Source: a virus
IMG/VR virus record: IMGVR_UViG_3300047469_000197
Coordinates: 31,131 to 95,130 of that record
Length of the DNA: 64,000 bases
Strand: one strand, 5' to 3'
Shown: in pieces, positions 30,983 through 63,780 of the stretch
Layout of the letters: the number at the start of each line of letters is the position of its first letter
How positions within the stretch are numbered: position 1 is the first letter of the stretch
The notes under the pieces: generated by a model
What the model was told of the DNA's origin: nothing
Databases searched by the model: none
The model's input: only the letters and a program-made list of their open reading frames with translations
Translations under genes and position numbers: made by a program

Positions 30983-31409
30983 CGAGGTGATTTTCCAGAC
31001 GCAATCCGAGAATATTTGCGATCTCTTCCAGCACCTTGCGCTCTTGTGGTTCAACTTCGCCATCTGCTTCAGCAATTGCAACGGCTACATCAAGCACGTC
31101 CTCTGCTTCGCGTGTGTCGTGTTTAACATCTTCGATTTCACGCAGAGCGGCACGACGGCCAATTTTGAAATTCGTTTCCAGCTGGCCGATGATCGTGGAG
31201 CTGATTCCATTAATTTCAGAGGTGAATGCCGCGAGCGCTGGCTGATTGCGCAGCACCTGCTCAATCTTCGCCTTCTCTGACGTTTCGCATTCGCCATCGG
31301 CATAAGCAACCAGGTAGGCAGCATTCACGACTGCCTGCGCCAGATCGCGCTTCTCAAATTTCTTGATTTCAGATTTTGCAGCTTTCGCTTTTTTCAGGAG
31401 CCCAAACAT
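30969..31409 (-). CDS. tciA: TerB-family protein TciA
   Basis: MFGLLKKAK..LVAYADGECE..AIAEADGEVEPQERKVL. Confidence 0.85.
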   Translation of the reverse strand: MFGLLKKAKAAKSEIKKFEKRDLAQAVVNAAYLVAYADGECETSEKAKIEQVLRNQPALAAFTSEINGISSTIIGQLETNFKIGRRAALREIEDVKHDTREAEDVLDVAVAIAEADGEVEPQERKVLEEIANILGLRLENHLDAQS

Positions 31410-40942: not shown

Positions 40943-43900
40943 TTAGTATTTTGCAACCACTTTGAGAATTTCCTCTTGATCGTATCTGGTAGAGATAAGC
41001 CACCAGCCGCCTGGGAATTCTGAGTCGTCGCGCCACCCACTGAAGAATTTAGCTCCGTACTGGGATTTCAGTTCATCTTTAGCCCGGTACAGCGCCCCCT
41101 CTTTGCCCTGCGGATCGTGCAGGCCGAAACAACCGCCCGCGGCAAAATTTACGCCGCGCTTGCTGCGCACCTGTGTTGTGTTGATGCGCACGACGATCTC
41201 GGAGGTGTCCACCAGCCCAGTAACCACCTCGGCCTTTTCAACCTTGGCGACATCAGCGCTCTTCTCTTGCTCTATCTGCTCAGGGGTAATCTGACCGCGC
41301 GCAAGCTGATACGTTTCTTTCATCGTTTTGCGCTGCTCGTCGCTCAGCTTCAGCAGACGGCTATCAACATCATGCGCAAATGCCATCAGGTTATCCGTGT
41401 TAACCAGCAGCTCAGGCGTTATGGTGGCCGCTGAAGAAAGCCCCAGAATGACCGCAGCGGCACACATGATCACACCCTGCAAACCGCCCTGGCTACTCGC
41501 AAAAATACCCTCAAAGGAACCGTACCCCTCGACCGCATGGAGAACGCCCTTTTCAAAGCTCAGCTCGCCACGTTCAACATGCGTCTTGAACTCCGCATAA
41601 TCATCCTGGGCTCGCTGTGCCTTACCGGCTATCAACATCTGTCGTGCTTCTGAATATGCTTGCGCAATTGCGTCCTGCAGCGCCTTTTCAAAATCAGCGG
41701 TGTTGGTGTATGTCGCATCAATATCGCCGTTCACGAATCGCATACCTTGCAGGCGCGGTACATTGACCGAACCGTCCAAGATGAAGCTGGCTACTGCGCG
41801 GTTGTAGTCAAAGTCATAGGTGTACATCTTGCCGCTCATACGCTTGGCCACCACGGCGTTGATCACATCTGGCCCGGCAATCTCACCCAAACCATTCATT
41901 ACCGTCTGATAGTCCTTACCAAACAGCGCAACGAGGAAGTCTTTTGCGGCGTAGCTGATATTGCGTTTGCGGCGCTCCATGATAGCAATGGTCTGTTTTA
42001 ACTGCTCATCGCTGCGATCGGGATAGACCAGAGATGCGCCATTCTGCTGATACCACTTTGCGTCAACATACATCCCATAACTGCCGAAGCCACTACTTCT
42101 CCGGTTCAGCTCGACCAGATCATACTTGCCATCTTTAATGCACACCGCCTGGGAGTCAGTCAGCATCAACTGGCCCGTGACGATGTAGTGCTTAAACTGA
42201 TCTTTGGTCAGCATGTCATGGATTGATGCCATGCTTACCCCACCCTGGAACTTACTCAGCAACTCCAGCTCTGAGGCTGTCACATCGCTTAGCGCGCCAA
42301 GATAGGCGACCGGAACACCTTTACTTGAACCCGCTACGTTAGTCCCATTCGCCGAAAAGATGCCGCGCATGTCAGCCGTCTGAGCATCAAAATCTAGGCG
42401 GCTAATACGCGCATACGAGATCTTGTTGTTCTTGGAACCGTTGCTGGTGGTATTGAAGTTATAGATCTGGCCGACCTTGAACGCCCTGCCGTCCACAACC
42501 AGAAAGTCTTTGCCGTGGTCGATCACGTCCGGGTCGATATCCAAAATGCCCTCATCGATCGCCTTTTTCACCACTGGACGGAGACGCTTGATCTCCTGCT
42601 CGGCTTTCGCCAGGCGGGCAATTTTACGTTGCTGTTTCACCAGCTGAGAGCGGGCATCCGCATCGAACTTGCTGCGGTCGTTAAGCTCCAGACGCTTGGC
42701 GCGTATCTCAGATTCGGCAATTTTAAACTCATGCTTTGGCCGCCAGTCATTCGGATTGTCGGTCATTTCAGCCTGTGCCTGAGCCTGTTTCTGCAGCAGG
42801 GCTTCAAGCTCGGCACGGGCCTCTTGCAGACCGTCAGCGAAGGAGGTTGCGCGGGATTCCAGCGTAGTGATTTTGTCCTTCTCTGTTGCCAGATCCGCAG
42901 CGCCGGCATGTTGTGCCTTGATGTAGTTCGACAGGTCGACGGCTGCGCGTTTCTTCGCGCGCGCCAGGGCGGCAGCTTTTGCCTCAGCGAGCTGTTGGGC
43001 AATCCGGCGCTCACGTTCTTCCGGATTGGCTGAGAGCAGCAACTGCATTTCAACCATGTTGCCTGCATCGGCGTTAGCCATCTGCGAGGCGTCAGACGTC
43101 AGGATCTCCTTAATCCAGGTGCGCTTGCGCTTCAGTGTCTGAAGGCGGAACTCATCAAATGAGCCCTTGCCGCAGTAATACCAGACGTTCACGCGGTCGT
43201 GAGTTGAACCCACGCGGGCGCCGCGCCCGTTACGCTGATCAATACTGGCTGGCGTCCATGGCAGCGTCAGATGGTGAATGTCCGTTGTGCCTTTGTGCAG
43301 GTTAATGCCTACTTCAGCCTTTTTATTGCAGATGAGGATGCTGGTGCGGCCTTCGTTGTAATCGGCGGCGATTTGCTCCAGCCCGCCCAAACTCACCTCA
43401 TTGATGGCAGCGACATACTCATCATAGGCGGCTTTCTGGGTGTTATAGTTCAGTACCTGGTCTTCAGTCGGATCGTCCGGCAGGTCTTTAGGCGGCTTCA
43501 CCTTTTTAGGCTTCTTGCCCTTTTTACCTGCATCAGCAACGGTTGTTGCGTTCAGGATCCCAATCATTGACGGGTCAATGCCCAGCTGCGTGGCGAGAAT
43601 CCGCTTTAACTTGCCGTGCTGGCTTTTCTCATCGGTGAAGATGATCTGTTTGCCGCGCTTTAATCCCTCTTTCAGGCGCTCCACCAACGCTGAGTATTTC
43701 GGCGTTAGAGGGTGAGACATATCCTTTTCCTGAAGGCCGAACTTCGCCAGGCGCTTCATCACTTCCTGTTCAAACACCTCTGGCACTACCAGTGTGGTAA
43801 ACGCGCCAGTGTCTTTGACGCTGAACTGACCTTCTGCGCCATAGCTGTCTTCATCTTCACTGTCTGCGTTGATGGCACCGGGAAGATCGGCCACCAGCTG

Positions 43901-46900
43901 GCGGATGTTTTCGGCCTGCTCTGCCGGGAAACGGAAGGTTATTTGACGGTGATACAGATCCATATCCGTACAAACTCGGTCCATGTCACGGATGATCGCA
44001 AAGATGGAATCTGGCGGTATCAGATTGCCGTCATCATCCTTTGTGATTTTGTCAGTCTGGCCAGCTGAAAGCTTCTCCGCACGCTCGCGCAGCTCTTCAT
44101 ATTTTTCCGCCTGCTCCGTCGACATTGGCGCTTCTGCGGTATTTTCTTCCAGCTCCGGTATTTTTACCTCCTGAGCCACGTCCGCGGAGGTTTTCAGAGT
44201 CGTCCAGCGGTGGAAAATACCGCGCAAGCCATCAAGGTTTTTGAACCCTACCAGCCCCTGCTTCTGCTCAACTTCCCCCGACAATTTGATAACACTGCAC
44301 ATCTCAGTGAGGCCAAACTCTTTAACGAAATCGTCCGGGGTGTAGATACCCATACGCTGCCAGTCGGAATAGCTCACGCAGTGGGAAAGCATGTTAAAGG
44401 CATCAATCGGGCTGTTTACCACTGGCGTTGCGGTCAGCAATACCGGTCCACGCCCATTGTTTTTCGACATCAGATAGGCGTTTTTCACCGCCATATCTCG
44501 CGCTGATTGCGCAACCTGCGGGGATGGGAGATATGCCAGTTGTGTGGCTTCACGGCCAGCACTGTAGCTGTTGCGGTAGTTGTGGCCCTCATCAGCGATC
44601 ACACTGTCAAAATGCATGTCTTCAAAATACGGGTAATCGTGTTGTTTCTCAGTGCCGGTATCTGAGTGCTCCGTTAACAGGCGGTCTTTTTTCTTCTGCT
44701 CGCGGTATGAGTCAGTACCGATTTTCACGCGCCCTGCGTCGGCCTGAGCAAACAGAATATCCTGTGCGTGATCGCGGACCGTCTCGGCACGCAATGGGAT
44801 CCCTGAATACTGCTCTTTGGTCATGACCACCAGGCGCGTATTACTGTGCGGGATCTGGTTCATGCGGGCTTTAACAGTGTCAGAGCCCGACAGCGACAGC
44901 GCATCACGCGTCAGCGGCTGGCCATCTCTGCCCATTACCGGGTTGCCGCTGTCATCCAGAACAGGCACCTGCTTAGCGTTACCCTCATCATCCAACTGCA
45001 CATCGAGGCCAACAAACAGGATGTTGCTGAACACCTGCGGCGAATAGAACGATTTGGCTTCGTGATACCAGTTTTCATAAACCGCTTTCGGCACGACGAT
45101 CGCGGTGCGGGTGCTGCGTCCGTTTTCGAAGTTGTACGCCTCCAGCGCCAGCGCCGTAGTTGTCTTACCCAGTCCAGTTCCAAAGCCCAGGATGCCGCGC
45201 CCGTCTTCTGAGAGACGGCGAACTTCCTGATTCTGGTAGCTGAAGGGTACCCGCTCACCACTTATGCCCGTGAGGTTCAGGCTGGCATCAGACTGTTCAA
45301 ACGGGATGTAAGCATTGAACGCGTTGTTGTACTGCTCAGCGAGCGCGTCGATCTCATCATGCTGGCGGATCCAATCGTTAAAACCAGATTCCAGATCTTT
45401 AATTTTCTCCAGATACGACTCCGCATTAATACCAATCGGCTTGCCACCATTGAGGTATTTTTCCAGCTGCGGCAGGAATGGGTCGCTGTTTGACTTGCGG
45501 GCATAGGTCGGCACCGTGGCGCCGGTGCTGTCCTTTTTCAACACGGTGCCGTATCGGTATCCGGCAAACACCCCGTTGGTGCCCTGGTAGCCCTGTTCAG
45601 AGACGAGCGCCCCATTCTCGACTTCGATTTCTTTGACATACGTCAGCTCGTCGTAGCCATTTTCTTTCAGGTATTCCAGTAGCAAGGAACGGTCAAACCA
45701 GCGCGAGTTGAGCGAAAACGTAATGTCGTCAATACCAGTCCACTTGCGGCGCGCATTGATCTGCTCCAGCTGTCGCAGATAATTATCTTTTTGCGGGCCT
45801 TCACCAATAACCCCCAGAACACCCTTAATCCCGGCACTCATGACGCCAATATCACCGCTGGTGGCGCGGTCCATAGGCATCAAATCGCCATTGGCTGTGA
45901 GGGCGATCCCGTCCGTGCTGGCGAGCATATCCAACAGCTGATCATCACTTTCTGGCAGCGTTGCGGCGGATGTTTTGCGGAACTCTTCCAGGGTGATCGG
46001 CACCAGGTCGATCTGATTAAACAGATGGCGGATAACCTGCTCATGGTTGGTGGCGTCATAAGCTGGTCCGGTCTGCGTTTCGAGCTTGCCCTGGAGAAAG
46101 TCAGACAGCTGGCCATCGGTCGTAATGGCCGCGCGGAACTTCAGCCAGTTGCCGCTGCTGTTGCCAGAAACCTTGCTCACACGGCCTTGGTTCGGGTTGC
46201 CGAACCGCTGTAGCTCACCTTCCACCAGCCGCGCTACGCTTTGGCGCATGGTATCCACGTCAACCGCAGGAAGATGGCTGGCGGCGGCGTCCTGCAGCAC
46301 ACCGATCTGAGCACCAATGATCGCACCACGGAAAACGCGTTCACGCTGGGCAACGGACACGCCCTGTGCAAACTGAAATGCTTTGCGGGTTGGCTCATCA
46401 ATGCTGTTCGGGTAATCCTGCATCAGCGCCTGCATATGATCCCACTGGCGCGCCAGCAGGGATTCAGGATTGCGCATCACCACTTTGAGCTCGTCCAGAT
46501 TACTAATGCCATAGCGTGCCGGATCTATAGCCTGCGGCTGGCCGGAAACATCAAGCACCCACTCACCCGCGGTGAACACGCGCCACTGACCGTTAATCTC
46601 GCGTTGCTCGCCTTCCTCTGCCTTCATGGTCTGCGGTTGCTGGATGCTCAGCATGTCCCAGTTGATGCGGCTATCGAACTTCTGCGCCAGTTTTTCTTTG
46701 ATAGCAGCAGGCGTGATCTGGTCGTTTCGGATGATGATGCGGCCTTGGAAACCTTTCTCGGTTTCGCCGTATACGAACCGCCTTCCGTCCTGTTCAAACC
46801 ATTTGCCGGCGATGAACTCTGGCCATAACACGTTAGCCTCCGTCAGCAGCGTTTCATCTGCCTGCGCAATCAGATCGGCCAGTGCTTCCGGGTGCTTCTG

Positions 46901-47770
46901 CAATACCCAGACGTCAACGGCAGTCGACGTGCCGTTTTCTTCAAAGGTGCCGGATGGCAGGCGGTGCGCGCCCAGGAACTCGGCTTTACGTGATACCTGC
47001 TGGCGCAGTTTCTTCATGCGACTGCCGCTGGTCATGCCGTATGGCACAACAATGCAGGCGATGCCGCCAGGGCGGATTTTGTCGAGTAGACGGAGAATGA
47101 AGTAACGGCCTATGTCTTTTTCTTTGGTGTACGCCTTATCGAGGTTGATCGTATCCCCGCGTGCGTCCCCAAACGGCACGTTCCCAACACAGTGATCAAA
47201 GCTGTTGTCTGCAGTACCCGCTGCGAGCGTTTCGAAAGGCGCAACTTTCACGTCGTCTTCCGGGTGGAGCAGCTGGTTAATGCGTCCTGAGATCGAGCTG
47301 ATTTCTGTTGCCGTCATGATGGTTCCGCGCGGCTTGGTTTCGTTGAATACCCCGGCGCCAGCGGATGGCTCCAGTGTGTTGCCTACGTCAGCGTTGTGGA
47401 GCTTCATGATCTGCCACATCCCTTCTGCAACATACTGCGGTGTGTAGTACTCATGAGTTGAACCGCCGATCCCCCCCTCACCGGTATAGCCCGCCAGAGT
47501 CTGGCGCTGCTCATCGTTCAGCTGCGCCCCATCAGGCAGGCTATTCAGTAATTCCAGTGCCTTGCGGTTAGCTTCCTTCCGCGCGCGCTCTACAGACACG
47601 CCGCTTTGCTTGGTGATCCCAAACACCACTGGCTTACGTATCACCCGTGCCAGCGCCTGAATGAAGCGAACGATCTCACCCACTGAATTGCAGGCAAGTA
47701 TCGCCTTGCTGAACGCCTCTTTGTCGTCGGCCATCGTCACCTCCAAAGTGAACATTTGATAAATTGACAT
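40943..47770 (-). CDS. darB: DarB antirestriction protein (N6-MTase plus SNF2 helicase)
   Basis: YTGEGG, EYYTP, LEPSAGAG, GNVPF, GTGLGKT, DEGH, LTATPVVNS, QRNGRGAR; about 2270 aa. Confidence 0.95.
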   Translation of the reverse strand: MSIYQMFTLEVTMADDKEAFSKAILACNSVGEIVRFIQALARVIRKPVVFGITKQSGVSVERARKEANRKALELLNSLPDGAQLNDEQRQTLAGYTGEGGIGGSTHEYYTPQYVAEGMWQIMKLHNADVGNTLEPSAGAGVFNETKPRGTIMTATEISSISGRINQLLHPEDDVKVAPFETLAAGTADNSFDHCVGNVPFGDARGDTINLDKAYTKEKDIGRYFILRLLDKIRPGGIACIVVPYGMTSGSRMKKLRQQVSRKAEFLGAHRLPSGTFEENGTSTAVDVWVLQKHPEALADLIAQADETLLTEANVLWPEFIAGKWFEQDGRRFVYGETEKGFQGRIIIRNDQITPAAIKEKLAQKFDSRINWDMLSIQQPQTMKAEEGEQREINGQWRVFTAGEWVLDVSGQPQAIDPARYGISNLDELKVVMRNPESLLARQWDHMQALMQDYPNSIDEPTRKAFQFAQGVSVAQRERVFRGAIIGAQIGVLQDAAASHLPAVDVDTMRQSVARLVEGELQRFGNPNQGRVSKVSGNSSGNWLKFRAAITTDGQLSDFLQGKLETQTGPAYDATNHEQVIRHLFNQIDLVPITLEEFRKTSAATLPESDDQLLDMLASTDGIALTANGDLMPMDRATSGDIGVMSAGIKGVLGVIGEGPQKDNYLRQLEQINARRKWTGIDDITFSLNSRWFDRSLLLEYLKENGYDELTYVKEIEVENGALVSEQGYQGTNGVFAGYRYGTVLKKDSTGATVPTYARKSNSDPFLPQLEKYLNGGKPIGINAESYLEKIKDLESGFNDWIRQHDEIDALAEQYNNAFNAYIPFEQSDASLNLTGISGERVPFSYQNQEVRRLSEDGRGILGFGTGLGKTTTALALEAYNFENGRSTRTAIVVPKAVYENWYHEAKSFYSPQVFSNILFVGLDVQLDDEGNAKQVPVLDDSGNPVMGRDGQPLTRDALSLSGSDTVKARMNQIPHSNTRLVVMTKEQYSGIPLRAETVRDHAQDILFAQADAGRVKIGTDSYREQKKKDRLLTEHSDTGTEKQHDYPYFEDMHFDSVIADEGHNYRNSYSAGREATQLAYLPSPQVAQSARDMAVKNAYLMSKNNGRGPVLLTATPVVNSPIDAFNMLSHCVSYSDWQRMGIYTPDDFVKEFGLTEMCSVIKLSGEVEQKQGLVGFKNLDGLRGIFHRWTTLKTSADVAQEVKIPELEENTAEAPMSTEQAEKYEELRERAEKLSAGQTDKITKDDDGNLIPPDSIFAIIRDMDRVCTDMDLYHRQITFRFPAEQAENIRQLVADLPGAINADSEDEDSYGAEGQFSVKDTGAFTTLVVPEVFEQEVMKRLAKFGLQEKDMSHPLTPKYSALVERLKEGLKRGKQIIFTDEKSQHGKLKRILATQLGIDPSMIGILNATTVADAGKKGKKPKKVKPPKDLPDDPTEDQVLNYNTQKAAYDEYVAAINEVSLGGLEQIAADYNEGRTSILICNKKAEVGINLHKGTTDIHHLTLPWTPASIDQRNGRGARVGSTHDRVNVWYYCGKGSFDEFRLQTLKRKRTWIKEILTSDASQMANADAGNMVEMQLLLSANPEERERRIAQQLAEAKAAALARAKKRAAVDLSNYIKAQHAGAADLATEKDKITTLESRATSFADGLQEARAELEALLQKQAQAQAEMTDNPNDWRPKHEFKIAESEIRAKRLELNDRSKFDADARSQLVKQQRKIARLAKAEQEIKRLRPVVKKAIDEGILDIDPDVIDHGKDFLVVDGRAFKVGQIYNFNTTSNGSKNNKISYARISRLDFDAQTADMRGIFSANGTNVAGSSKGVPVAYLGALSDVTASELELLSKFQGGVSMASIHDMLTKDQFKHYIVTGQLMLTDSQAVCIKDGKYDLVELNRRSSGFGSYGMYVDAKWYQQNGASLVYPDRSDEQLKQTIAIMERRKRNISYAAKDFLVALFGKDYQTVMNGLGEIAGPDVINAVVAKRMSGKMYTYDFDYNRAVASFILDGSVNVPRLQGMRFVNGDIDATYTNTADFEKALQDAIAQAYSEARQMLIAGKAQRAQDDYAEFKTHVERGELSFEKGVLHAVEGYGSFEGIFASSQGGLQGVIMCAAAVILGLSSAATITPELLVNTDNLMAFAHDVDSRLLKLSDEQRKTMKETYQLARGQITPEQIEQEKSADVAKVEKAEVVTGLVDTSEIVVRINTTQVRSKRGVNFAAGGCFGLHDPQGKEGALYRAKDELKSQYGAKFFSGWRDDSEFPGGWWLISTRYDQEEILKVVAKY

Positions 47771-50743: not shown

Positions 50744-50998
50744 ATGGAGATTGTGTTGGAAAACCAGCATCGCCTTATCAAGAAGTATCGCGAGCTCAGC
50801 CAGGCCGAGATTGACCTTATGAACGAATCGGAGGAGTTGGAGCAGATCGTTCTCGACTTCATCAACCGCGTGAAAAAGGTTAATGCCGATCAGGTTGTGG
50901 AAATAGATATGCGCTGGCTCAGCATTGGCCTGACGAACATCGAGCAGGGCTTTATGGCCGTCTCACGCTCTATCGCAAAACCAGGCAACGCAGAATAA
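50744..50998 (+). CDS. acb2: Acb2-family cyclic oligonucleotide sponge (anti-CBASS)
   Basis: ENQHRLIKKYRELSQAEIDLMN..RWLSIGLTNIEQGFMAVSRSIAKP matches the Acb2 signature. Confidence 0.88.
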   Translation: MEIVLENQHRLIKKYRELSQAEIDLMNESEELEQIVLDFINRVKKVNADQVVEIDMRWLSIGLTNIEQGFMAVSRSIAKPGNAE

Positions 50999-51011: not shown

Positions 51012-51974
51012 TTGGGGGGTGGCCTTGAACAGGTAAATGCAATGAATTTAACGTGTACGAATATACAGCAGAAAGGTGCTTCCTTCAAGGAAAACGGGGA
51101 TTTAAACAGCTTCGGGCTTCGGCGCGCGGTGGATTTAATAGCCAACGAAAACCTGCCCAGAGCAGCACGCACGATCTTATCGATGGTATGTCCAGTTGCC
51201 GCCAGTACGTCAGCTTATAAGATCACCAAATCACGCCGCCGCATGGCTGATGAGTGTGGTGCAACCGAGGCGACAATCCGCCGCAATCTTAAAAAAGCGG
51301 TTGATGCCGGCATTCTCATTAGCACTCTGATTTTTGATAAATCCGAGAATGGTCGCGGCCAGATGCCGACTGAATACCAGTTCACATCACAGTTTATTGA
51401 AGCTGCAAAATCACTGTGTATGACACTGGATAAAGCCCGTGATGGCATCACCGCGGCTAAAACTTTGTTCGCAAAAACCCTTCATACCATCCGCAATATT
51501 TTTTGTGGCAAGAGCACCCCCCGATCAGAACTACCTGCCACCCCAGATCAATCTGATCGACAAGAATTAGTATCTTTTGACTTAAAGAATTCAAAAGAGG
51601 TTCCAGCTAGCGCTGAAAAAGTTTCTGTTGTTAAAAATGTAAAAGCCTGGGCTGAGGCCAAGCATGAGCGTGCTACGACGCAAGCTAATGACTATGCCGA
51701 ACGTCAGGATCTGGCACTTGCAAAACGCAGTGCCGAACGTGAACAGCTGGATAAGCTGGTAAGGCGGCGTGCATTTACCACTGGAGCAGCCGTTAAGCGC
51801 CAGAGCACGTCCACCAGCCACAATGAGACACGCTTTGATGAAGCAAACAGGCTTCACGATGAATCGATGCGGATAGCAGCCCAAAAGGCCGCTGAATCCA
51901 AAGCCCGTGGGTTCTCCCCGGCATCCATTTTGGCGAAGCACTTCCCTCACCGTAAATCTTCTAACCAGGAATGA
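51012..51974 (+). CDS. repL: Lytic replication protein RepL
   Basis: LPRAARTILS..AASTSAY.I.K..R.MA.ECG....TIRR..K.AV..GIL..YQFT..F matches P1 RepL; true start probably 51042. Confidence 0.85.
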   Translation: MGGGLEQVNAMNLTCTNIQQKGASFKENGDLNSFGLRRAVDLIANENLPRAARTILSMVCPVAASTSAYKITKSRRRMADECGATEATIRRNLKKAVDAGILISTLIFDKSENGRGQMPTEYQFTSQFIEAAKSLCMTLDKARDGITAAKTLFAKTLHTIRNIFCGKSTPRSELPATPDQSDRQELVSFDLKNSKEVPASAEKVSVVKNVKAWAEAKHERATTQANDYAERQDLALAKRSAEREQLDKLVRRRAFTTGAAVKRQSTSTSHNETRFDEANRLHDESMRIAAQKAAESKARGFSPASILAKHFPHRKSSNQE

Positions 51975-54973: not shown

Positions 54974-55459
54974 TTAGCTTGTCAGTTTACCACCAAAGTC
55001 CTGGTATGCCTTAAGCAGCTTGTTGATGTCATGTGCATGCTGGCCATAGTCGTTACCCGGTAGGCTTGCCCAGATGTTGGAACACGCCTCAATTGCCGCA
55101 GTAATGTTGCCAGCCTCAATAAGCGGCAATGCCCTCCGCTCTTTCAAGATCTGATCACACAACTTTTCCTGACTGGCCACCGAGAAGTCTGGCAAAGCCA
55201 GCTGCTTTTTGTAAGCGGGCCAAAACTTGAAAAGCTGCTGATATCCACCGGATGCAGTCGAGCGCTGCCCTGCTTTGTTGAATACCTTACCCAAACGGCC
55301 ATTGGCGAACGGGTGATCACTAAAATCTGTGAACACTTCAAGCTTGCCATCGGAACCAGTCACGATAACGTCATAGCCGCCGTTCTTGGTCAATGGATGA
55401 TTTAACGTGCCTTCAGAAAAACGCAGCATTTTTTTGAACGCCAGAAGATTTGAACTCAT
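54974..55459 (-). CDS. Endolysin, lambda R-type lytic transglycosylase
   Basis: AF..ML.FSEGT, GYDVIV, FTDFSDHP, STASGGYQ, LPDFS..SQ, IWASLPG..YGQ. Confidence 0.93.
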   Translation of the reverse strand: MSSNLLAFKKMLRFSEGTLNHPLTKNGGYDVIVTGSDGKLEVFTDFSDHPFANGRLGKVFNKAGQRSTASGGYQQLFKFWPAYKKQLALPDFSVASQEKLCDQILKERRALPLIEAGNITAAIEACSNIWASLPGNDYGQHAHDINKLLKAYQDFGGKLTS

Positions 55460-56027: not shown

Positions 56028-56387
56028 TTATGACTGTTCGCCTTGCGCGAAACGTTCATCGGTATCCTGCTCAATCGCCGCCAGCTCATCCTGCCAGTCC
56101 TGCGGCACACCGCTAACCTCAATCGAATAGATTTTCATAACGTTCAGCACCTCATAAGGTGCACACACGTTATTCTTCAGAGGGTAGATCCCCTGAGCAG
56201 CGCCCTCTGCGGTTAGGGTAATGTTCCAGAAAAGCACCTGAATATCCTGCAGCGAGAAATCCCCGGCCACCGTCATTTCGCACGGCTCTGTCACTTCATC
56301 ACCCGCAAAGGCAATCGTGCCACGCTGTTCGCCTTTACTTAGTTGAACGGTTATCACAATCCATGCACTCCCTTCAGGAAACCACAA
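56028..56387 (-). CDS. Hxr-like small protein
   Basis: Follows ddrB as in P1; true start probably MITVQL. Confidence 0.5.
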   Translation of the reverse strand: MWFPEGSAWIVITVQLSKGEQRGTIAFAGDEVTEPCEMTVAGDFSLQDIQVLFWNITLTAEGAAQGIYPLKNNVCAPYEVLNVMKIYSIEVSGVPQDWQDELAAIEQDTDERFAQGEQS

Positions 56388-57970
56388 ACGAGCTGGAGCA
56401 GCTGGTCATCATTGAGCAACGACACCGCGCCCGCTTCACTGTTAGCAAGATACTCAAATGCTGATGAGAAAACTTCAGTCGCATAGGCTGCGTGAGTATC
56501 CCGTGAGTTTTTTGCAGCATACACCTTACCAACATACGGTGACGAGAGGGCGTCAGTGATACCGACCTCATCATCAGAATAGTTGCTGTAGTAAAACTTA
56601 TTTAGTGGCCTGATGGCCGTTCTGTCACCGCCAGCACGGCCTGTAAGATAGGATGTAGCCATTTTCAGCGCATCAGGATTGCTGTATTCAAAGTGATGCC
56701 CCACTTCATGCCACAATACTTTTTTGCCCCCGCGCGGGTTAAGCGCAATGACTTTCTTGGCCTGATGCGCAAATGACCGGCCACGATTAAGATCGATTGC
56801 TTTAAGGGTCTTGAGTTGCCCACCAGCCAGCTTGTAGACGGCTTTAAGATCATCAATAAATGCCCCGTCCCGCCCCTCGCGCTCGTTATATTCATTCATC
56901 AGTTTTTTGCTGATCTTAATCCCGCTCACCCACTCTGCGGCATCAGCATCACTCACTACGTCCGTGCTGAGCAGCTTCTCACGCATTTCATCAATAATCG
57001 GCGCGACTTTGCTGATTGGTGTGGCGATAAAATCTTTGAGCCATGAAGCAGCGCCTTTGCTGGTGATGTTGTTTTGCAGATAGTTCTGACAGCCGTTGAG
57101 CTCTGCCGCACTACCAAAACCGAACCGCCCATTAATCAGCGCATCAACAACTTTTTCATGGTTGCTGCCGAACTGCGTTTTTACGTTCAACCATTCCAGT
57201 GAGTCCGCATTAGCCACATCCAGCGTTTGAACCACCAGCTGCTTGGCTTCAGCCATCGCGGCTGAAACGGGAGTGGTCAACCCCTCAAGCATTGCCGCGC
57301 CATCGTGCTGCATCGGAGCGAGTTTCTGTCCCGCTTGTTCCTGCGTTAGGGTCGCTGCATTTACGCGATCGTCGCTGGTGGCCATCATCATAAAAATATT
57401 GGCGGCAGAGTTATTAAGCAGGTCGCCAGCGCGGTTTAGGATCATCATCACAACACCGCCTTTCAAGGATCCATCAGCTTCCTGAATGGACTTGACGATA
57501 GCCGATATTACGCGGGCGGCTGCATCGCGATCCTCAACCGTTTTAGCATCACGCCATGCCTGTATTGCAGGCCGAATGCGGAACAGATCACCGGACACGA
57601 ATATGAACTTCCAGGCACGTTCTGTGCCGAGATATACCCAGCTGAGGTTCAGCAACTTCGCTGCAGACACCGCGAAATCCATGAACATCATGGATGAGTT
57701 CATAAACATATTTTGTTTGGCTGACTTCAGGGTTTTCCCCATCAATGCGGTTGTCATGGCGGTGAAGGCCAGGATTTCCGTTTCACTGGGCTCAGCCTGC
57801 TGTAACAGTTTGCTGAGCTTGCTAAATATAAATCGCTCATCCCCGCCAATTGGCCCATCGCCCCAGAATCCGCCGATCGCTTCAGCGACTTCGCCGGCCG
57901 ACTGGCATCCGCCAATGATCGCCTTGGTTATCTTATTCGTTTTAGGCGCTTTGAGAGTCGTTTTAAGCAT
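56354..57970 (-). CDS. ddrB: DdrB-like protein with HExxH motif
   Basis: Follows ddrA; LWHEVGHHFEYSNP..YVGKVY..TEVFS. Confidence 0.7.
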   Translation of the reverse strand: MLKTTLKAPKTNKITKAIIGGCQSAGEVAEAIGGFWGDGPIGGDERFIFSKLSKLLQQAEPSETEILAFTAMTTALMGKTLKSAKQNMFMNSSMMFMDFAVSAAKLLNLSWVYLGTERAWKFIFVSGDLFRIRPAIQAWRDAKTVEDRDAAARVISAIVKSIQEADGSLKGGVVMMILNRAGDLLNNSAANIFMMMATSDDRVNAATLTQEQAGQKLAPMQHDGAAMLEGLTTPVSAAMAEAKQLVVQTLDVANADSLEWLNVKTQFGSNHEKVVDALINGRFGFGSAAELNGCQNYLQNNITSKGAASWLKDFIATPISKVAPIIDEMREKLLSTDVVSDADAAEWVSGIKISKKLMNEYNEREGRDGAFIDDLKAVYKLAGGQLKTLKAIDLNRGRSFAHQAKKVIALNPRGGKKVLWHEVGHHFEYSNPDALKMATSYLTGRAGGDRTAIRPLNKFYYSNYSDDEVGITDALSSPYVGKVYAAKNSRDTHAAYATEVFSSAFEYLANSEAGAVSLLNDDQLLQLVCGFLKGVHGL

Positions 57971-58021: not shown

Positions 58022-58393
58022 TCAGGCTGCTACAGCCGCCCTGTCGTTAACCCAAGTGATGGCTCCTGCTTTAACGTCATCCAGCGTCAGGTAAATTCCC
58101 ACATACTGATCCAGCGTGTTCAGCGTTGTGACAAACTCACTATCCTGTTGCGTGGTGAATTTACCCGCCAGGAAATCAGTAACGATTTCTGGCTGAACAT
58201 CAGCGGGTTTTGGAGGCTCAGGGTCAGCTGGTGGCGGCGAGACAGCCGCAGCGCCATAGCCGAGCTTGACCAATACCTCATCCACTTTGTCGCCAATATC
58301 GAGTAGGTCCAGCCCTTTGGCGGTTTTAGCCTGCTCCAGCAGGCTATCCAGTTCATCGCTCAGATCGAGCCGTTCTAATGCGGTTAAAGCCAT
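58022..58393 (-). CDS. ddrA: DdrA
   Basis: MALTALERLDLSDELDSLL..GLDLLD..VTDFLAGKF; coupled to darA. Confidence 0.8.
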   Translation of the reverse strand: MALTALERLDLSDELDSLLEQAKTAKGLDLLDIGDKVDEVLVKLGYGAAAVSPPPADPEPPKPADVQPEIVTDFLAGKFTTQQDSEFVTTLNTLDQYVGIYLTLDDVKAGAITWVNDRAAVAA

Positions 58394-61300
58394 TAAGCTG
58401 CACCCCGCGCCACTGCGGCCAGCAGATCAGAGAGTTTCTGCGCCGCTGCATTCACCAAGTCTTCGTTTTCCTCGTAAACACCTGCGTCCGTCAGGGCCGT
58501 GATGGCCGCGCGCACGTTACCGCGGGCGGTGCGGATTTCGATCATGTCGCCTGAATTCATCTGCGCCACCTCCTTTAGATAGTCGATAGCCTTCTGTGCG
58601 GCGCTGTCGGCTTCGGTCTTCGGCGGTTCAGGGTCGGTTACTGGCGGTGGTGTTGTCACAGGTGCGGCTTCTTTAAGCGTTGGGAACGGTGATCCAAAGT
58701 CAATTGCTGACTTCACCCGCGATATGTTTTCCTGGCTGGCGCTCACAGCCAGTTTGTCCGCCATTTCCATCAGCTCGTCGTTGCTGATGTGCTGGCCGTC
58801 TGCCCAGTTTGAGATCGAATCAACACTATGACCGGTGAAGCTGGCCAGCAGCGCTGCAGCTTTGCCGAATGTATCCATCTCATTATCCGGGGTGACGTCT
58901 GGCACGGGGACCGGGTCTGGGATTGGCGCAGGTTTGGCCGGAGTGTCATCAATCGCCTTGAAGGTTTCGCCGCTCAGGTGGATCGAGGTGACTCCCAGCC
59001 CTTTAGCCTTAATCAGTTCAAGGTCCGCAGGGGTTGCGCTGTACTTAAGCGAAAGGTGCGGCAGATACTCAGGGTATGAATGCGCCCCGCCCGCAGCGGT
59101 GAGCTCATCAAAGCGCTTCTTGAGGTCTGCGCTATCCAGAATTGCCACTAACGCCTCATTTGGCGCATTGCCAATGATCTTGTATTCGCCGGTCAACCGT
59201 GCCAAATAGGTGCGGCCTGGCTCTGGCTGGATGAAGATCGAATGATCTTTGGAGTACATGAGGGTTACGTGCAGCTTCTCAGGAGTGATGCCGCCATTAA
59301 TCCCCAGAGCGCTGACCTGATCTGCAACCGCTCCAGCCTCAGCTACTGTTGGCTTAACGCTTACATAGCCATTGTTCCCACCTTCTGTGGGTGCCGGGAT
59401 AGCCGGTGCTACAGGTGGGGTCGGTGCATCATCGGTTTTACCATTAACCCAGCGCTCCTTGAGATCCTTCCAGTCGCCCATGAATACCGATTTGTCGCCG
59501 CGGTCGACGCCAAAGGCAACGCTGATTTCGCCCTCATGTTTTCCATCTTCTTCGACGTCCGCAGAATCGTAGTCCTTCGACAGCTCCTTATCAGCCCAGC
59601 GAATGAAGTCCTCCGGGCCTTCGATCCACATCATTAGCCGACCATCGCGCGGTAGCCCCTCGCCTTTGGTCTGCTCAAATGCGCGCGCAACAAGACTGCG
59701 CTTGGAAGGTTTGACGGGTGGAGTCTGTTCGACTGGCGGCACAGCAGCTGGCGGGGCAAATTTCGCGGCACCCTTCCCGGTAAGGATCTCATCATCCTTG
59801 CGTAGAACGTAGATGTACTGGAGGCCAGAGATTTTAAAGCGCTGCATACCGAACCCAGCAGCCATAGCGGCTTTCACCATCTGATAGCGCGATTCTGCAA
59901 ACTCCGGGTTACTGGTCGCGGACTGGCCATTAATTTTGAACTTCGCGGCGGCAACGATATCGTTGAGCGTGGATTGCGTGTACCAAATCGGGTTATCTCC
60001 GCTGGTGGCACCTTTTGCGATCGTCGGCATCGCCGCGCCCGTCTGGATACTTTCCAGTGGAACAGTGTCGCCGTCTGAGAGCTGCACGCCGCTGTTATCG
60101 TCTGGCTTGGGTGTGTCATCAACTGGTGCCGGTGGCGGAGCCGGGTTGTCTTTCTTGACCTGCTTGAAAAATTCCATGTAGCGAAGAGAGGCTTTGCTGC
60201 CCATATTCTGGCGAATCGTCTGGAAGCCACCAGCATCTTTCATGCTCTGCGGAAGCTTATCCGCCTTTGGCGCGTCATCGGCGAGATAGTCCAGGTAAAA
60301 CGCATTTTCATTGCCAGGGTAAGCCTGAATCAGCGGGATCAAATCGTTTAGCAAGGCGTTGAAACTAGAAGTCGTCTGCTTCTTCTGGAAATCCACCAGC
60401 TCAAACTGCGCAACGTCACCCGCATCGAGCGGAGAAGCGTAGGCAACAGCACCGTTACGATAGTCAGACGGGTCGAAATCTTTCGCTTTCACGATCGGTA
60501 GCTCTGCTGCTTCTTCAACTGTTGCGATAACAGCAGGCTTCGGCTCCTGCGGCAAAGCGCCGGGGCCAGCCGGACGTGCGCGCAAGCCATACCAATACAG
60601 TGATCTCGGACCGGGATCGTTAGACGGCGGCGGTACAGAATTACGGGCCTTCAGCGCCGGGATATCGCTCAGGTCAGACACCTGCCCTTTGTACATGATG
60701 AGGTCTTTCAGGTCGGACACGTCGACCGTGTCGAGACGGCTGGCAAGGTCAGTCAGATCGCCAGTCGGGATGTTCTGGTTATAAGCCCAGTTAGCCACAT
60801 AGGTGTCTTTGTAACCGGATTTAGCCTGGATGGAGGTCAGGGCATCGGCACGCGCTTTACGATCGGCCATCTGTGCCGCTGCAGCGTCATCTTTTTTCTG
60901 TTGGGCGGCGGCGAGCTGGCTTTGCAGTTCAATGTTGAGCTCGTCCTGCTTGTCGGCCTTGTTGGTCAGATCCGAAAGCGTTTGTGAGTCCGCCTGAATC
61001 GAAGCATTCATCTGGTCGCCCTGCTCTACCAATGAAGCCTGTTGCTCTTCCAGCTTATCGCCGGCTTCTTGCATCGTAGCGATCTCGGCTTTGATAGCGT
61101 TCTGCTTTGCCTGCGCATGCTGGAATTTAGCGGTGTTTCGCTCAATGAGGTTAGACAGAGCAGTCGTAACCACTTTCAGCGAAATATCGCGCCCATTGGA
61201 CGGGGAAACCACGTGCGTGACGTCTTTTTTGTTCAGCAGGAACTGGAACGCTACCAGTGTGTCGGTTGCGGTGATGCTGCTGGCATTCCCGGTAGGGCTA

Positions 61301-61749
61301 TGGAAAACCAGCGTAACGGTCTGGCCATCAGACAGCGGGATAATCGCAGGCATAACAGCGAGCCCCTGAACCTTACGGACGCGACCAATGTTGGCGCCAC
61401 CCATCGCCTGGCTACCATCATCAGACTCTCCGGACGTGTCATTTCCAGCGGTGATGCCTGAACCGTTCAGAGACTGGTTTAGTGCCCGGATAAAGGCACG
61501 CATGCTGCCGGACAGTCGGGCGCGCGTGCTGGTGATGGCTTCGAACATCTGCGCGTTCTGTTCAATGAGGACCGGCACGTCGTAGAAATACGTCGACTCG
61601 ATGTCTGCCATGTTCACGGCTTCCACCATGAAATGCTCCCCTTCGCCCTGGTACAGTTCGTTAAAGAACGTATCGGGGATCATGATTGCCGGGATGTCCT
61701 GACGGTTTTGCAACAACATCCCTTTGCTGAGGTTGATATCACGCAGCAT
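58393..61749 (-). CDS. darA: DarA internal head antirestriction protein, extended with extra domains
   Basis: DarA_N (IIPLSDGQTVTLVFHSP..FQFLLNKKDVTHVVSP), coiled coil, DarA_C-like (YWYGLRARPAGPGALP), inserted 2H domain, C-terminal NAAAQKLSDLL. Confidence 0.9.
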   Translation of the reverse strand: MLRDINLSKGMLLQNRQDIPAIMIPDTFFNELYQGEGEHFMVEAVNMADIESTYFYDVPVLIEQNAQMFEAITSTRARLSGSMRAFIRALNQSLNGSGITAGNDTSGESDDGSQAMGGANIGRVRKVQGLAVMPAIIPLSDGQTVTLVFHSPTGNASSITATDTLVAFQFLLNKKDVTHVVSPSNGRDISLKVVTTALSNLIERNTAKFQHAQAKQNAIKAEIATMQEAGDKLEEQQASLVEQGDQMNASIQADSQTLSDLTNKADKQDELNIELQSQLAAAQQKKDDAAAAQMADRKARADALTSIQAKSGYKDTYVANWAYNQNIPTGDLTDLASRLDTVDVSDLKDLIMYKGQVSDLSDIPALKARNSVPPPSNDPGPRSLYWYGLRARPAGPGALPQEPKPAVIATVEEAAELPIVKAKDFDPSDYRNGAVAYASPLDAGDVAQFELVDFQKKQTTSSFNALLNDLIPLIQAYPGNENAFYLDYLADDAPKADKLPQSMKDAGGFQTIRQNMGSKASLRYMEFFKQVKKDNPAPPPAPVDDTPKPDDNSGVQLSDGDTVPLESIQTGAAMPTIAKGATSGDNPIWYTQSTLNDIVAAAKFKINGQSATSNPEFAESRYQMVKAAMAAGFGMQRFKISGLQYIYVLRKDDEILTGKGAAKFAPPAAVPPVEQTPPVKPSKRSLVARAFEQTKGEGLPRDGRLMMWIEGPEDFIRWADKELSKDYDSADVEEDGKHEGEISVAFGVDRGDKSVFMGDWKDLKERWVNGKTDDAPTPPVAPAIPAPTEGGNNGYVSVKPTVAEAGAVADQVSALGINGGITPEKLHVTLMYSKDHSIFIQPEPGRTYLARLTGEYKIIGNAPNEALVAILDSADLKKRFDELTAAGGAHSYPEYLPHLSLKYSATPADLELIKAKGLGVTSIHLSGETFKAIDDTPAKPAPIPDPVPVPDVTPDNEMDTFGKAAALLASFTGHSVDSISNWADGQHISNDELMEMADKLAVSASQENISRVKSAIDFGSPFPTLKEAAPVTTPPPVTDPEPPKTEADSAAQKAIDYLKEVAQMNSGDMIEIRTARGNVRAAITALTDAGVYEENEDLVNAAAQKLSDLLAAVARGAA

Positions 61750-62374
61750 TTTGGCTCTCCATCGTTTTGATTTTGTCTTGCAGCTGGGCGGTCAATGCTT
61801 GCGCGGTGGCATAGCGCGTCTGTGCGGCTGCAATGCGTTGCTGAATGTTTGAGGATTGTGCCGTGTACTTTGCAACTTCATCCGAAATGGCCTTGGTACT
61901 GGTGGCCAGCTGGTCACGGCGATCTCTGGCTTCCTTCAGGCGCTGTACGTTGGATTTAACAGCCGCTCGGTTGTCGGAGGTGTCAATCACGCGCTTCGCC
62001 TTTCTCGCCAGACCATCCGTGAACTTTTGCGAGTTCTGCTTAACGATGGTGCTGAGCGAGTCGGCCACTTTAGCGAGCGTGTCGGCATGCTGGACGGGAA
62101 TGGATCTGCCATTGAGCTTAAAGCTCGCCAGGTCGCCGGAGTCGTTAACGGCGATCTTCACTTCCTGCTGATCCTGGAAGCGAAGAACAGCGGTTTTTAC
62201 CTTGATGCCGTTAGAGTTCGTCGGGCGATTGCTGGCATCAACGTTCTCGACCGTCAGGCCAGCTTTCCCCAAGGCATCGATGAAAGGCTTAAGCCCTTTC
62301 TCAGTGACCTGGTTGAAGTCCAGTAAGGCATACTGATTACCGTTAGATGAATGGAGGCCGGGAGTTTTAATCAT
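61739..62374 (-). CDS. hdf: Hdf (homologue of darA fragment)
   Basis: Likely start MIKTPG; YALLDFNQVTEKGLKP, VNDSGDLASFKLNG. Confidence 0.85.
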   Translation of the reverse strand: MIKTPGLHSSNGNQYALLDFNQVTEKGLKPFIDALGKAGLTVENVDASNRPTNSNGIKVKTAVLRFQDQQEVKIAVNDSGDLASFKLNGRSIPVQHADTLAKVADSLSTIVKQNSQKFTDGLARKAKRVIDTSDNRAAVKSNVQRLKEARDRRDQLATSTKAISDEVAKYTAQSSNIQQRIAAAQTRYATAQALTAQLQDKIKTMESQNAA

Positions 62375-62807
62375 GTTGGGAATCCCGTACCAGCTGAATA
62401 TTGAGTTCTTTTTCCACAACCAGCTCCATAGGGAAGATGCGATAAAGTGGGTTGAAGAAAGAGTCACCGTGCACGACTTTGACTCGGACAATCCAGACGC
62501 CGTCCGGACTAACCTTACTGGCGGGAATGTCGAGGTATTCGCAATTCTCACCCGTGCGCGAGTGCTCAAGCGTTCTACGGCCACCCGCAATAACGGTGGT
62601 AGGAAAACGTTTGTCGCGCAGTGAATACTCAATCGTTGCGCCCTTCAGACGGTTAAATTTAACGTTGAAGAAGAACGGAATACGCACATGCTCATTCTCA
62701 ACTTTATGATCGCCGGCACGCAATTTAGTGATGTTCGACCGCGGCAAACAAAAGCGGTCACCAATCATGTAAATTGCAGCGGCTGAAATGATGATCCCAC
62801 CTATCAT
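62367..62807 (-). CDS. lydB: LydB antiholin
   Basis: N-terminal TM, NPLYRIFP; between lydA and hdf. Confidence 0.8.
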   Translation of the reverse strand: MIGGIIISAAAIYMIGDRFCLPRSNITKLRAGDHKVENEHVRIPFFFNVKFNRLKGATIEYSLRDKRFPTTVIAGGRRTLEHSRTGENCEYLDIPASKVSPDGVWIVRVKVVHGDSFFNPLYRIFPMELVVEKELNIQLVRDSQHD

Positions 62808-63130
62808 TTGCCCCCCTTAGAAAAGAGCTGAACTAAAACTTTGCCGATTGCCTCGGTATTGAGACGTTTGGCCATGTGAATGATTTCATTTCCGTTATTG
62901 CTCGAAAGCAGGACGGAAAAGTAGATGATTGGTTGATCTAAGTGGTTATGCTTCCCCACGTAGAAAGCCATCAGCCCCGCAGTAACAGCGATAAAAGTTT
63001 CCGTAAAAAAATCCAAAACAGTTCCTTTAATCCTGCCCTCCCTGATCCCCATGAGGAAAACGCCAATACCACTCAGGATCGAAAGCGCGACAGCGACGGC
63101 AATCGGTATTAATTCGGTGGTGTTGAGCAC
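62804..63130 (-). CDS. lydA: LydA holin
   Basis: MLNTTELIPIAVAVALSILSGIGVFLM, AVTAGL, SNNGNE. Confidence 0.85.
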   Translation of the reverse strand: MLNTTELIPIAVAVALSILSGIGVFLMGIREGRIKGTVLDFFTETFIAVTAGLMAFYVGKHNHLDQPIIYFSVLLSSNNGNEIIHMAKRLNTEAIGKVLVQLFSKGGK

Positions 63131-63219
63131 CTCTTTCCCCTATTGGTTGTCTTTGTCGTTGCCGGGATTTTATGGAAAGTAGCATTTGCGGCGTGAGTGA
63201 TTACGCCGCAGGGAAGGAA

Positions 63220-63780
63220 TCAATTGGGGTAAGTGGAGGCGGGGAAATATTTGTAGATTGTTGGTAATGATACATCGTAAAGCAGGGCCAACTGCTTACG
63301 GTCGATGCCCTTCTTAATCAGGCGCTCAGCTTGCTCAACAACTGTAGGCGTCATCTTGGCCCTTCTTCCGCCAATTCTGCCTTTCGCACGCGCCGCCGCC
63401 AGGCCAGCCAAAGTTCGCTCTAAATTAAGTTCTTTTTCCATTTCAGCGAAAGCGCACATGATATGAAAGGCAAAGCGTCCCATCGGTGTATTCGTATCAA
63501 TGTTGTCCGTGATACTGATGAGATGAACGCCACGGGCGCGCATTTCTGTTACCAGAGAAACCAGATTCATGACGCTGCGGCCAAGCCTGTCTAATTTCCA
63601 AATAACCAAGGAGTCACCCGACTTAAGGGCTTTCATTGCCTTTGTCAGGCCCGGTCGTTTTCCCTTCATTCCGCTCATTTTATCTTCAAAAATCTGAGCG
63701 CATTCTAAACGATTCAAGGCTTCTCGCTGCAAATCGGTATTTTGGTCGATTGTTGAAACCCTGATGTAACCAATTTTCAC
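63220..63780 (-). CDS. cin: Cin-type serine DNA invertase
   Basis: IGYIRVSTIDQN, WKLDRLGRS, GRIGGRR, HTH ending YKYFPA. Confidence 0.93.
   Translation of the reverse strand: MKIGYIRVSTIDQNTDLQREALNRLECAQIFEDKMSGMKGKRPGLTKAMKALKSGDSLVIWKLDRLGRSVMNLVSLVTEMRARGVHLISITDNIDTNTPMGRFAFHIMCAFAEMEKELNLERTLAGLAAARAKGRIGGRRAKMTPTVVEQAERLIKKGIDRKQLALLYDVSLPTIYKYFPASTYPN

Follow-up and report, generated by a model that had tools for sequence, protein, structure and literature searches.

Acb1 enzymes are 2H phosphodiesterases that hydrolyze the nucleotide signals of the cyclic oligonucleotide-based antiphage signaling system (CBASS). They cleave 3'3'-cyclic GMP-AMP (3'3'-cGAMP), cUA, cAAA, and cAAG without metal, and all ten homologues assayed by Hobbs et al. 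cut 3'3'-cGAMP and cAAA (PMC9117128). The described members, among them those of T4 (gene 57B), Erwinia phage FBB1 (PDB 7t26 and 7t27), and Burkholderia phage BCSR5 (9q2g and 9q2y), share the PF23474 family profile, the 2H fold, and two His-x-Thr/Ser motifs, and are about 150 amino acids (aa) long. To our knowledge, every Acb1 enzyme characterised so far is a free protein that is produced once infection has begun. Here we describe a domain with the same family profile, fold, and motifs that lies instead inside DarA, a capsid-internal protein, with Pro-rich linkers on both sides. The darA gene was found in a 64,000-nucleotide stretch of viral DNA ("the window"; positions 31,131 to 95,130 of IMG/VR record IMGVR_UViG_3300047469_000197), where a single open reading frame (ORF) of 1118 aa occupies positions 58393..61749 of the minus strand, stop codon included. 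All positions below are those of the window.

The described counterpart of the carrier is DarA of phage P1 (639 aa; PDB 9ukm and 9vz0). Cryo-electron microscopy revealed 55 DarA-Hdf pairs on the inner surface of the P1 capsid, in which DarA residues 70 to 382 are ordered and residues 383 to 639 are flexible. Residues 1 to 69 are absent from the capsid, consistent with cleavage by the head protease, and heads emptied of DNA lack the DarA-Hdf pairs (PMC12810830). P1 has also been challenged with type III CBASS, with or without T4 Acb1 in trans, and is restricted by it (PMC9117128), so that selective pressure is to be expected on a P1-like phage. In Vibrio phages, Acb1 was found in the virions (bioRxiv 10.1101/2024.12.24.630238).

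The idea of packaged 2H domains is in print. According to the text of their paper, Iyer, Burroughs, Anand, de Souza, and Aravind defined the phage "polyvalent proteins" in 2017, counted DarA-N and 2H among the phage-type domains, and described 2H domains that are joined to MuF or to portal proteins, for which they proposed degradation of the nucleotides of nucleotide-activated defenses (PMC5512222). The protein described here resembles those proteins in bearing an effector-type 2H domain on a head-packed chain, with degradation of defense nucleotides predicted upon entry. Polyvalent proteins are marked by several effector-type domains per chain, and this chain holds DarA_N, Acb1/2H, and at least two more conserved modules. 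It differs in its carrier, which is not the 12-copy portal but DarA, a multicopy protein of the capsid wall in P1. A second comparison is Gp15, an ejectosome protein of ICP3 and T7-like phages that likewise enters with the DNA as a virion protein and counters CBASS (bioRxiv 10.1101/2025.07.23.666291). Gp15 blocks the CapV effector stoichiometrically and leaves cGAMP untouched, whereas the domain described here would be expected to destroy the signal catalytically.

We found no paper describing a DarA-Acb1 fusion in the searched literature, which included the text of Iyer et al. (PMC5512222) but not its figures, where DarA-N may be drawn together with 2H. The main text of Hobbs et al. (2022) mentions neither fusions nor portal proteins nor virions. 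A 2H or Acb1 domain on portal and MuF proteins is already known, and what is new is Acb1 on the multicopy capsid-wall carrier DarA. The first-pass annotation of the window, made from the sequence alone, implied a wider novelty, which was overstated: virion-delivered 2H polyvalent proteins date, by the text of that paper, from 2017 (PMC5512222), and Acb1 fusions to portal, MuF, and polyvalent proteins are common.

An Acb1-family domain in a DarA orthologue

The 1118-aa protein is an orthologue of DarA by its sequence, because it contains DarA_N, a near-threshold DarA_C, and a P1-like C-terminal domain, and because its gene stands in the order lydA-lydB-hdf-darA-ddrA-ddrB. The first-pass annotation had called the gene a darA much longer than that of P1, with exact coordinates and the strand unstated, and this identification held. 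P1 DarA (PDB 9ukm) matched residues 4 to 409 and 1027 to 1115 in a sequence search (E 4e-90), and BLASTP found 38% identity to it across the first 450 residues and 53% across the last 90. A Pfam scan of the whole protein returned DarA_N, Acb1, and the near-threshold DarA_C.

Residues 795 to 935 (58945..59367, on the minus strand like all darA features below) make up the Acb1 domain; an Acb1-like segment had been proposed at 58946-59370 (residues 794-935) from the letters. The match to PF23474 (E 3e-20) reaches 72.8 bits, where the gathering score is 27, and covers positions 4 to 139 of the 144 in the profile. The first catalytic motif is H827-V-T829 (59263..59271) and the second is H898-L-S900 (59050..59058). 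We aligned the module with 63 representatives of an exhaustive HMMER search (alignment A2, 64 sequences). Both catalytic His residues are invariant in this family alignment, the Thr of the first motif is nearly so, and the Ser of the second is also the family consensus.

An AlphaFold model built on the 64-sequence alignment has a mean pLDDT score (local distance difference test, as predicted) of 94.5 and a predicted template-modeling (TM) score of 0.87. When this model was compared with the PDB by Foldseek, the check suggested in the first-pass annotation, ranks 1 to 5 were all taken by Acb1 structures (9q2y, 9q2g, 7t26, and 7t27; E 1e-8 to 4e-7, TM scores 0.69 to 0.80). LigT, CPDase (cyclic phosphodiesterase), and Usb1-type 2H proteins ranked after them, at E values of at least 2e-3. 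The family profile matched FBB1 Acb1 (7t26) with an E value of 1e-23; the FBB1 sequence aligned to residues 795 to 904, with its N-terminal Tyr on Y795. Because the Pfam score, the confident model, the Acb1-only top ranks, the profile match, and the invariant His residues agree, residues 795 to 935 are identified by sequence and model as an intact member of the Acb1 family with a predicted HxT/HxS catalytic tetrad. It differs from the described enzymes in the HxS form of its second motif, and its activity is a prediction.

Comparison with the orthologue from Pantoea indicates purifying selection on the protein. The ratio of nonsynonymous to synonymous substitution rates (dN/dS) is 0.044 for DarA_N, which is 86% identical between the two, 0.048 for DarA_C, and 0.062 for the C-terminal domain. 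The Acb1 module is 60% identical, with a dN of 0.31; its synonymous sites are saturated, so that dN/dS could not be computed for this block.

The remainder of the protein follows P1 DarA in its operon position, DarA_N, long helix, putative DarA_C, and C-terminal helical domain. Residues 1 to 69 (61543..61749), which align to residues 3 to 69 of P1 DarA, are the counterpart of the piece that is cut off by the head protease, and by analogy this N terminus would be trimmed as well. DarA_N, the hexon-binding part in P1, spans residues 68 to 206 (61132..61548; PF18788, E 1e-34, 119.3 bits). A long alpha-helical or coiled-coil segment comes next (residues 207 to 304, 60838..61131), recognized by its alignment to the P1 DarA helix domain and by weak coiled-coil matches in Pfam. 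The DarA_C-like domain named in the first-pass annotation corresponds to residues 384 to 453 (60391..60600). This region can be aligned with P1 DarA, and relatives carry a precomputed PF18789 annotation there, but its own score of 24.8 bits stays below the cutoff of 27. The segment after it (residues 454 to 545, 60115..60390) is kept in all nine relatives described below and matches no Pfam or PHROG family. At the other end, the conserved C-terminal helical domain (residues 1027 to 1118, 58396..58671) is 53% identical to residues 545 to 634 of P1 DarA.

Between these shared parts, which are only about 38 to 53% identical to those of P1, the present protein is some 480 residues longer than P1 DarA owing to modules A and B, the Acb1 domain, and a second helical unit. 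All inserts fall in the counterpart of the P1 flexible half, after the part that binds the capsid and before the conserved domain at the C terminus. The modules were expected to be joined by Pro-rich linkers, and five such stretches were located, at about residues 546-556, 667-680, 776-790, 940-960, and 1028-1045.

The twice-repeated helical unit that had been read from the letters found weak support. Unit 1 (residues 305 to 375, 60625..60837) stands in place of the P1-type penton-binding segment, and unit 2 covers residues 962 to 1026 (58672..58866); both were delimited from hhalign and the alignment of relatives. Compared profile to profile, residues 305-372 and 962-1028 gave a probability of 85.6% (E 5.6e-6, 29% identity over 51 columns), while BLASTP aligned nothing, so the repeat is seen solely by profile comparison. 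It appears that the beta-rich penton-binding domain of P1 DarA was swapped in the present lineage for an unrelated helical unit, which was duplicated near the C terminus.

Two other proposals of the first-pass annotation were dropped. A DUF5417-like domain was not found in Pfam searches with the whole protein at E<=1 or with five sub-segments at E<=10. The term "polyprotein," in the sense of cleavage between modules, was not adopted, since neither DarA nor its ddrB-like neighbor, which has no Pfam match, shows a peptidase domain, and since a conserved P1-like C-terminal domain lies beyond all inserts. The same searches yielded no processing metallopeptidase (MPTase) of the sort that releases the domains of polyvalent proteins; in P1 DdrB, the MPTase domain is itself only predicted, according to the text of Iyer et al. 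(PMC5512222; P1 record NC_005856).

Orphan modules and the range of Acb1 fusions

Two further inserts are conserved modules without a named family. Module A spans residues 556 to 668 (59746..60084), where a domain of no known family had been placed at about 59770-60060, and module B spans residues 678 to 778 (59416..59718). Neither module matches a Pfam or PHROG family or any usable ESM Atlas cluster, and in a collection of 5.8 billion proteins neither has a match among those below 614 aa or above 1957 aa in length. A joint AlphaFold model of the two, built on an 8-sequence alignment, reached a pLDDT of 46 and was unusable.

The distribution of modules was read from an alignment of nine proteins retrieved with the insert region as the query. 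Module A is present in six of them (P0001 to P0006, P0001 being the window protein), module B in three (P0001, P0007, and P0008), Acb1 in four, and the second helical unit in eight. In the Pantoea protein (P0004), a diverged copy of module B is placed after Acb1. Acb1 was found in one more DarA, the fifth (P0010, 912 aa), whose backbone is of the P1 type; there the domain precedes DarA_C, as opposed to the window protein, in which Acb1 follows DarA_C and modules A and B. Modules A and B thus appear, from these sequences, to be confined to DarA proteins and to be placed differently in different DarA backbones. Separately, module A occurs with 45 to 47% identity in a 705-aa gene at the darA position of Serratia P1-like plasmids, at residues ~309 to 404, which is another site than in the window protein. 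One example is Serratia marcescens plasmid NZ_OW849140.1 (2577-4694, L007; 46% identity), a further sign of shuffling within DarA.

This mosaicism supports the view, put forward in the first-pass annotation, of DarA as a cargo scaffold. Whether the idea can be taken further is doubtful: we consider it possible, with more doubt than belief, that DarA has in its flexible C-terminal half a cargo rack prone to recombination, in which small modules are exchanged and, attached to the capsid wall, brought into the host, and that modules A and B are undescribed counter-defense effectors delivered by the virion.

We next asked where Acb1 itself is found. The exhaustive module search returned 404 family members at E <= 1e-3, and about 30 of the best 150 exceed 250 aa. 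In the longer members that were scanned, Acb1 was joined to portal, Mu-portal, or MuF proteins, one MuF form also holding an ADP-ribosyltransferase, to DarA, or to a polyvalent protein of 3735 aa. The protein with ADP-ribosyltransferase (P0107, 771 aa) consists of MuF, Acb1, and an ADP-ribosyltransferase exoenzyme domain, and the 3735-aa protein (P0092) carries Acb1 with ART-PolyVal and LPD38. By their domain matches, Acb1 seems to travel in these two proteins with other effector domains of virion-associated polyvalent proteins.

In a quick maximum-likelihood tree, the five DarA-borne modules formed one clade (Shimodaira-Hasegawa-like approximate likelihood ratio test, 99), whose nearest neighbors, with weak support, include portal- and MuF-fused Acb1. 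Each of the five copies retains both HxT/S motifs. The contigs bearing DarA-Acb1 relatives, where known, measure 85 to 97 kb, the size of phage-plasmids; that of P0010 measures 10 kb. A scan of GTDB species genomes found no close relative of the module, and a scan of viral contigs turned up no more than two proteins, each about 600 aa long and ending in an Acb1 domain, which are probably portal fusions. An Acb1-family domain is also present at the C terminus of the cyanophage Pam3 portal (PDB 8hds, chain residues 482-609, profile E 5.7e-12); the word "phosphoesterase" is absent from the paper on this structure (PMC9942802).

The late operon and its genome

The darA gene lies among neighbors whose order, cin-lydA-lydB-hdf-darA-ddrA-ddrB-like-lysozyme, follows the darA operon of the P1 record NC_005856 and is also that of Pantoea and Citrobacter P1-like plasmids. 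From their PHROG assignments, cin lies at 63220-63780, the holin gene lydA at 62804-63130, lydB at 62367-62807, and the lysozyme gene at 54974-55459. The longest possible ORF of hdf, which encodes the partner of DarA in the P1 capsid, occupies 61739..62632 of the minus strand. Its match to the PHROG Hdf-like family (E 5e-45) begins at residue 96, it also matches Pfam DarA_N (E 7e-12), and the orthologue in Pantoea has 211 aa; the true start is probably near 62374. Downstream on the same strand are ddrA (58022..58393; PHROG DdrA-like, E 1.5e-35) and a ddrB-like gene (56354..57970) for a protein of 538 aa, shorter than that of P1. The latter matches phrog_2299, the family to which P1-type DdrB belongs (E 1e-34), in its C-terminal part only (profile positions 592 to 991) and shows no Pfam domain; the N-terminal half of a P1-type DdrB seems to be missing from it.

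Upstream of lydA, the first gene of the operon, a minus-strand element at 63167..63185 resembles the P1 late promoter LPdar. It has a -22 box ATGCTACTT and a -10 box TAAAAT, and 14 of its 19 bases equal the annotated P1 LPdar; by this similarity it is a putative late promoter. The window also encodes a DarB-like protein of 2275 aa (40943-47770, minus strand) with an Eco57I-type methylase, an SNF2/ResIII helicase, and Helicase_C, which completes a Dar set of hdf, darA, ddrA, ddrB-like, and darB.

The source record comprises 95,130 bp and is rated 100% complete. Its closest plasmid record is a 96-kb Pantoea plasmid with 76% nucleotide identity across the portal and head-processing genes. The bearer of this darA is a complete 95-kb P1-like phage, of the phage-plasmid type, of Enterobacterales. 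A genome-level scan found a single Acb1 match in the record, the one in DarA (77.1 bits). No CD-NTase (cGAS/DncV-like nucleotidyltransferase; SMODS) match was found in the record, which is that of the phage alone.

An ORF of 84 aa at 50744-50998 (plus strand) matches the Acb2/Tad1 hairpin family (PF24729, E 1.4e-13, 51.3 bits versus 27) and sits just upstream of a 320-aa ORF (51012-51974) without a named family. By this match, the Acb2-like sponge is a second anti-CBASS candidate of the phage beside the DarA-borne Acb1. With both on one genome, the phage seems to devote two genes to countering CBASS.

Proposed delivery with the DNA and its alternatives

The best explanation of the locus as a whole, and one that we hold with belief and doubt in about equal measure, is a ready-made anti-CBASS nuclease that is delivered with the DNA. 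The N-terminal third of the protein (DarA_N and the long helix) would bind the inner capsid wall together with Hdf, as in P1, and the C-terminal half has grown into a chain of small modules on Pro-rich linkers. The darA gene would be transcribed late, together with the lysis and dar genes. DarA would then be assembled into proheads, tens of copies to a head (55 in P1), and trimmed at its N terminus by the head protease. The modules would hang in the capsid lumen as beads on Pro-rich strings. DarA would exit the head together with the DNA, and the Acb1 enzyme, active on CBASS signals while still tethered, would be present in the cytoplasm ahead of any phage transcription. The Acb2-like sponge would then provide a second anti-CBASS layer. 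Since the inserts lie in the flexible half and P1 DarA is gone from emptied heads, it is reasonable to expect virion loading and co-ejection; by analogy with P1, the DarA-borne Acb1 probably travels inside the capsid and reaches the cell interior together with the DNA.

Several points weigh against delivery of such an enzyme. The activity, packaging, and delivery of DarA-Acb1 are predictions from the sequence, the model, and the analogy with P1. The fusion is rare: it forms five clusters at 90% identity in large protein collections, with 1 to 3 members each, and occurs in 1 of 664 DarA-matching PLSDB plasmid records. FBB1 Acb1 holds its ligand with base-stacking residues Y12, W74, F107, and W147, the adenine-contacting E141, and a C-terminal lid at residues 145 to 152 (PMC9117128). 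The alignments to 7t26 end at about chain residue 113, two-thirds through that structure, so that the lid and some of the base-stacking residues are unmapped. Model confidence falls beyond the last strand of the module, a Pro-rich linker follows directly, and there is no aromatic residue among the ten residues after that strand. Because the FBB1-type lid and stacking set cannot be mapped, the substrate range or the efficiency may differ. Lastly, late structural proteins are a frequent trigger of CBASS (review PMC13728456), so an enzyme present at time zero is not obviously needed; and with darA located in a late operon, protein freshly made by the producer cell could suffice.

The last two points lead to the strongest alternative, which we judge rather unlikely on balance, that the Acb1 domain acts mainly late, in the virion-producing cell. 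Fusion to DarA would give it abundant late expression and perhaps placement at assembling proheads, and delivery would be incidental. Such timing matches the sensing of capsid or prohead proteins by CD-NTases, and mutations that allow escape from type I CBASS fall in virion assembly proteins, which suggests late sensing (review PMC13728456). The position of darA in the lydA-lydB-hdf-darA operon, behind an element like P1 LPdar, is equally compatible with late action, and for other phases the phage already has its Acb2-like gene, next to those for lytic replication. Late action alone, however, would be served equally well by a free late gene, and that capsid-internal proteins (DarA, portal, and MuF) have become carriers again and again points to packaging as the selected feature. 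Within DarA, Acb1 has been retained in two different places.

A second alternative concerns the substrate. The 2H domain may act on 2',3'-cyclic phosphate RNA ends, such as host anticodon RNases and further RNases that need no metal leave behind, on 2'-5' oligoadenylates, or on the cyclic oligoadenylates of type III CRISPR. We regard this as clearly unlikely. 2H enzymes perform all of these reactions, and RNase activity or 2'-5' oligoadenylate degradation is among the roles offered in the text of Iyer et al. (PMC5512222); the PHROGs label for the family is "RNA ligase," and the unmapped lid and ligand contacts leave room for another ligand. In sequence and fold, however, the domain is clearly nearer to characterised Acb1 than to LigT, CPDase, or Usb1 (72.8 bits; E 1e-8 versus at least 2e-3), the ten assayed homologues were uniform in cutting 3'3'-cGAMP and cAAA (PMC9117128), and an Acb2-like sponge on the same genome fits CBASS pressure. 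A passenger insert, in decay or of structural use alone and without an enzymatic role, is very improbable: the fusion is rare and Acb1 is the block most diverged from the Pantoea orthologue (60% identity versus 86% for its neighbors), but none of the five DarA-borne copies has lost a motif, the protein is conserved in spite of saturated synonymous change, and the predicted fold is of high confidence.

If a ready-made Acb1 is indeed delivered with the DNA, DarA-Acb1 would show that phages preload signal-degrading enzymes and thereby close the interval before phage gene expression. The idea of delivery by portal and MuF fusions has been in print since 2017, and we found no test of it in the searched literature. 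DarA-Acb1 offers an unusually tractable system for such a test, because P1 genetics is easy, because P1 is sensitive to CBASS and has been used in assays with Acb1 in trans, and because cryo-electron microscopy has established where DarA sits in the capsid and in how many copies. Trans-complementation would be able to separate delivered from newly made DarA. The two orphan modules A and B are likewise worth screening for function: their mosaic in DarA marks a defined place for finding new counter-defense domains, and if the flexible half of DarA is a cargo rack, cataloguing its inserts would be a route to discovering new anti-defense domains.

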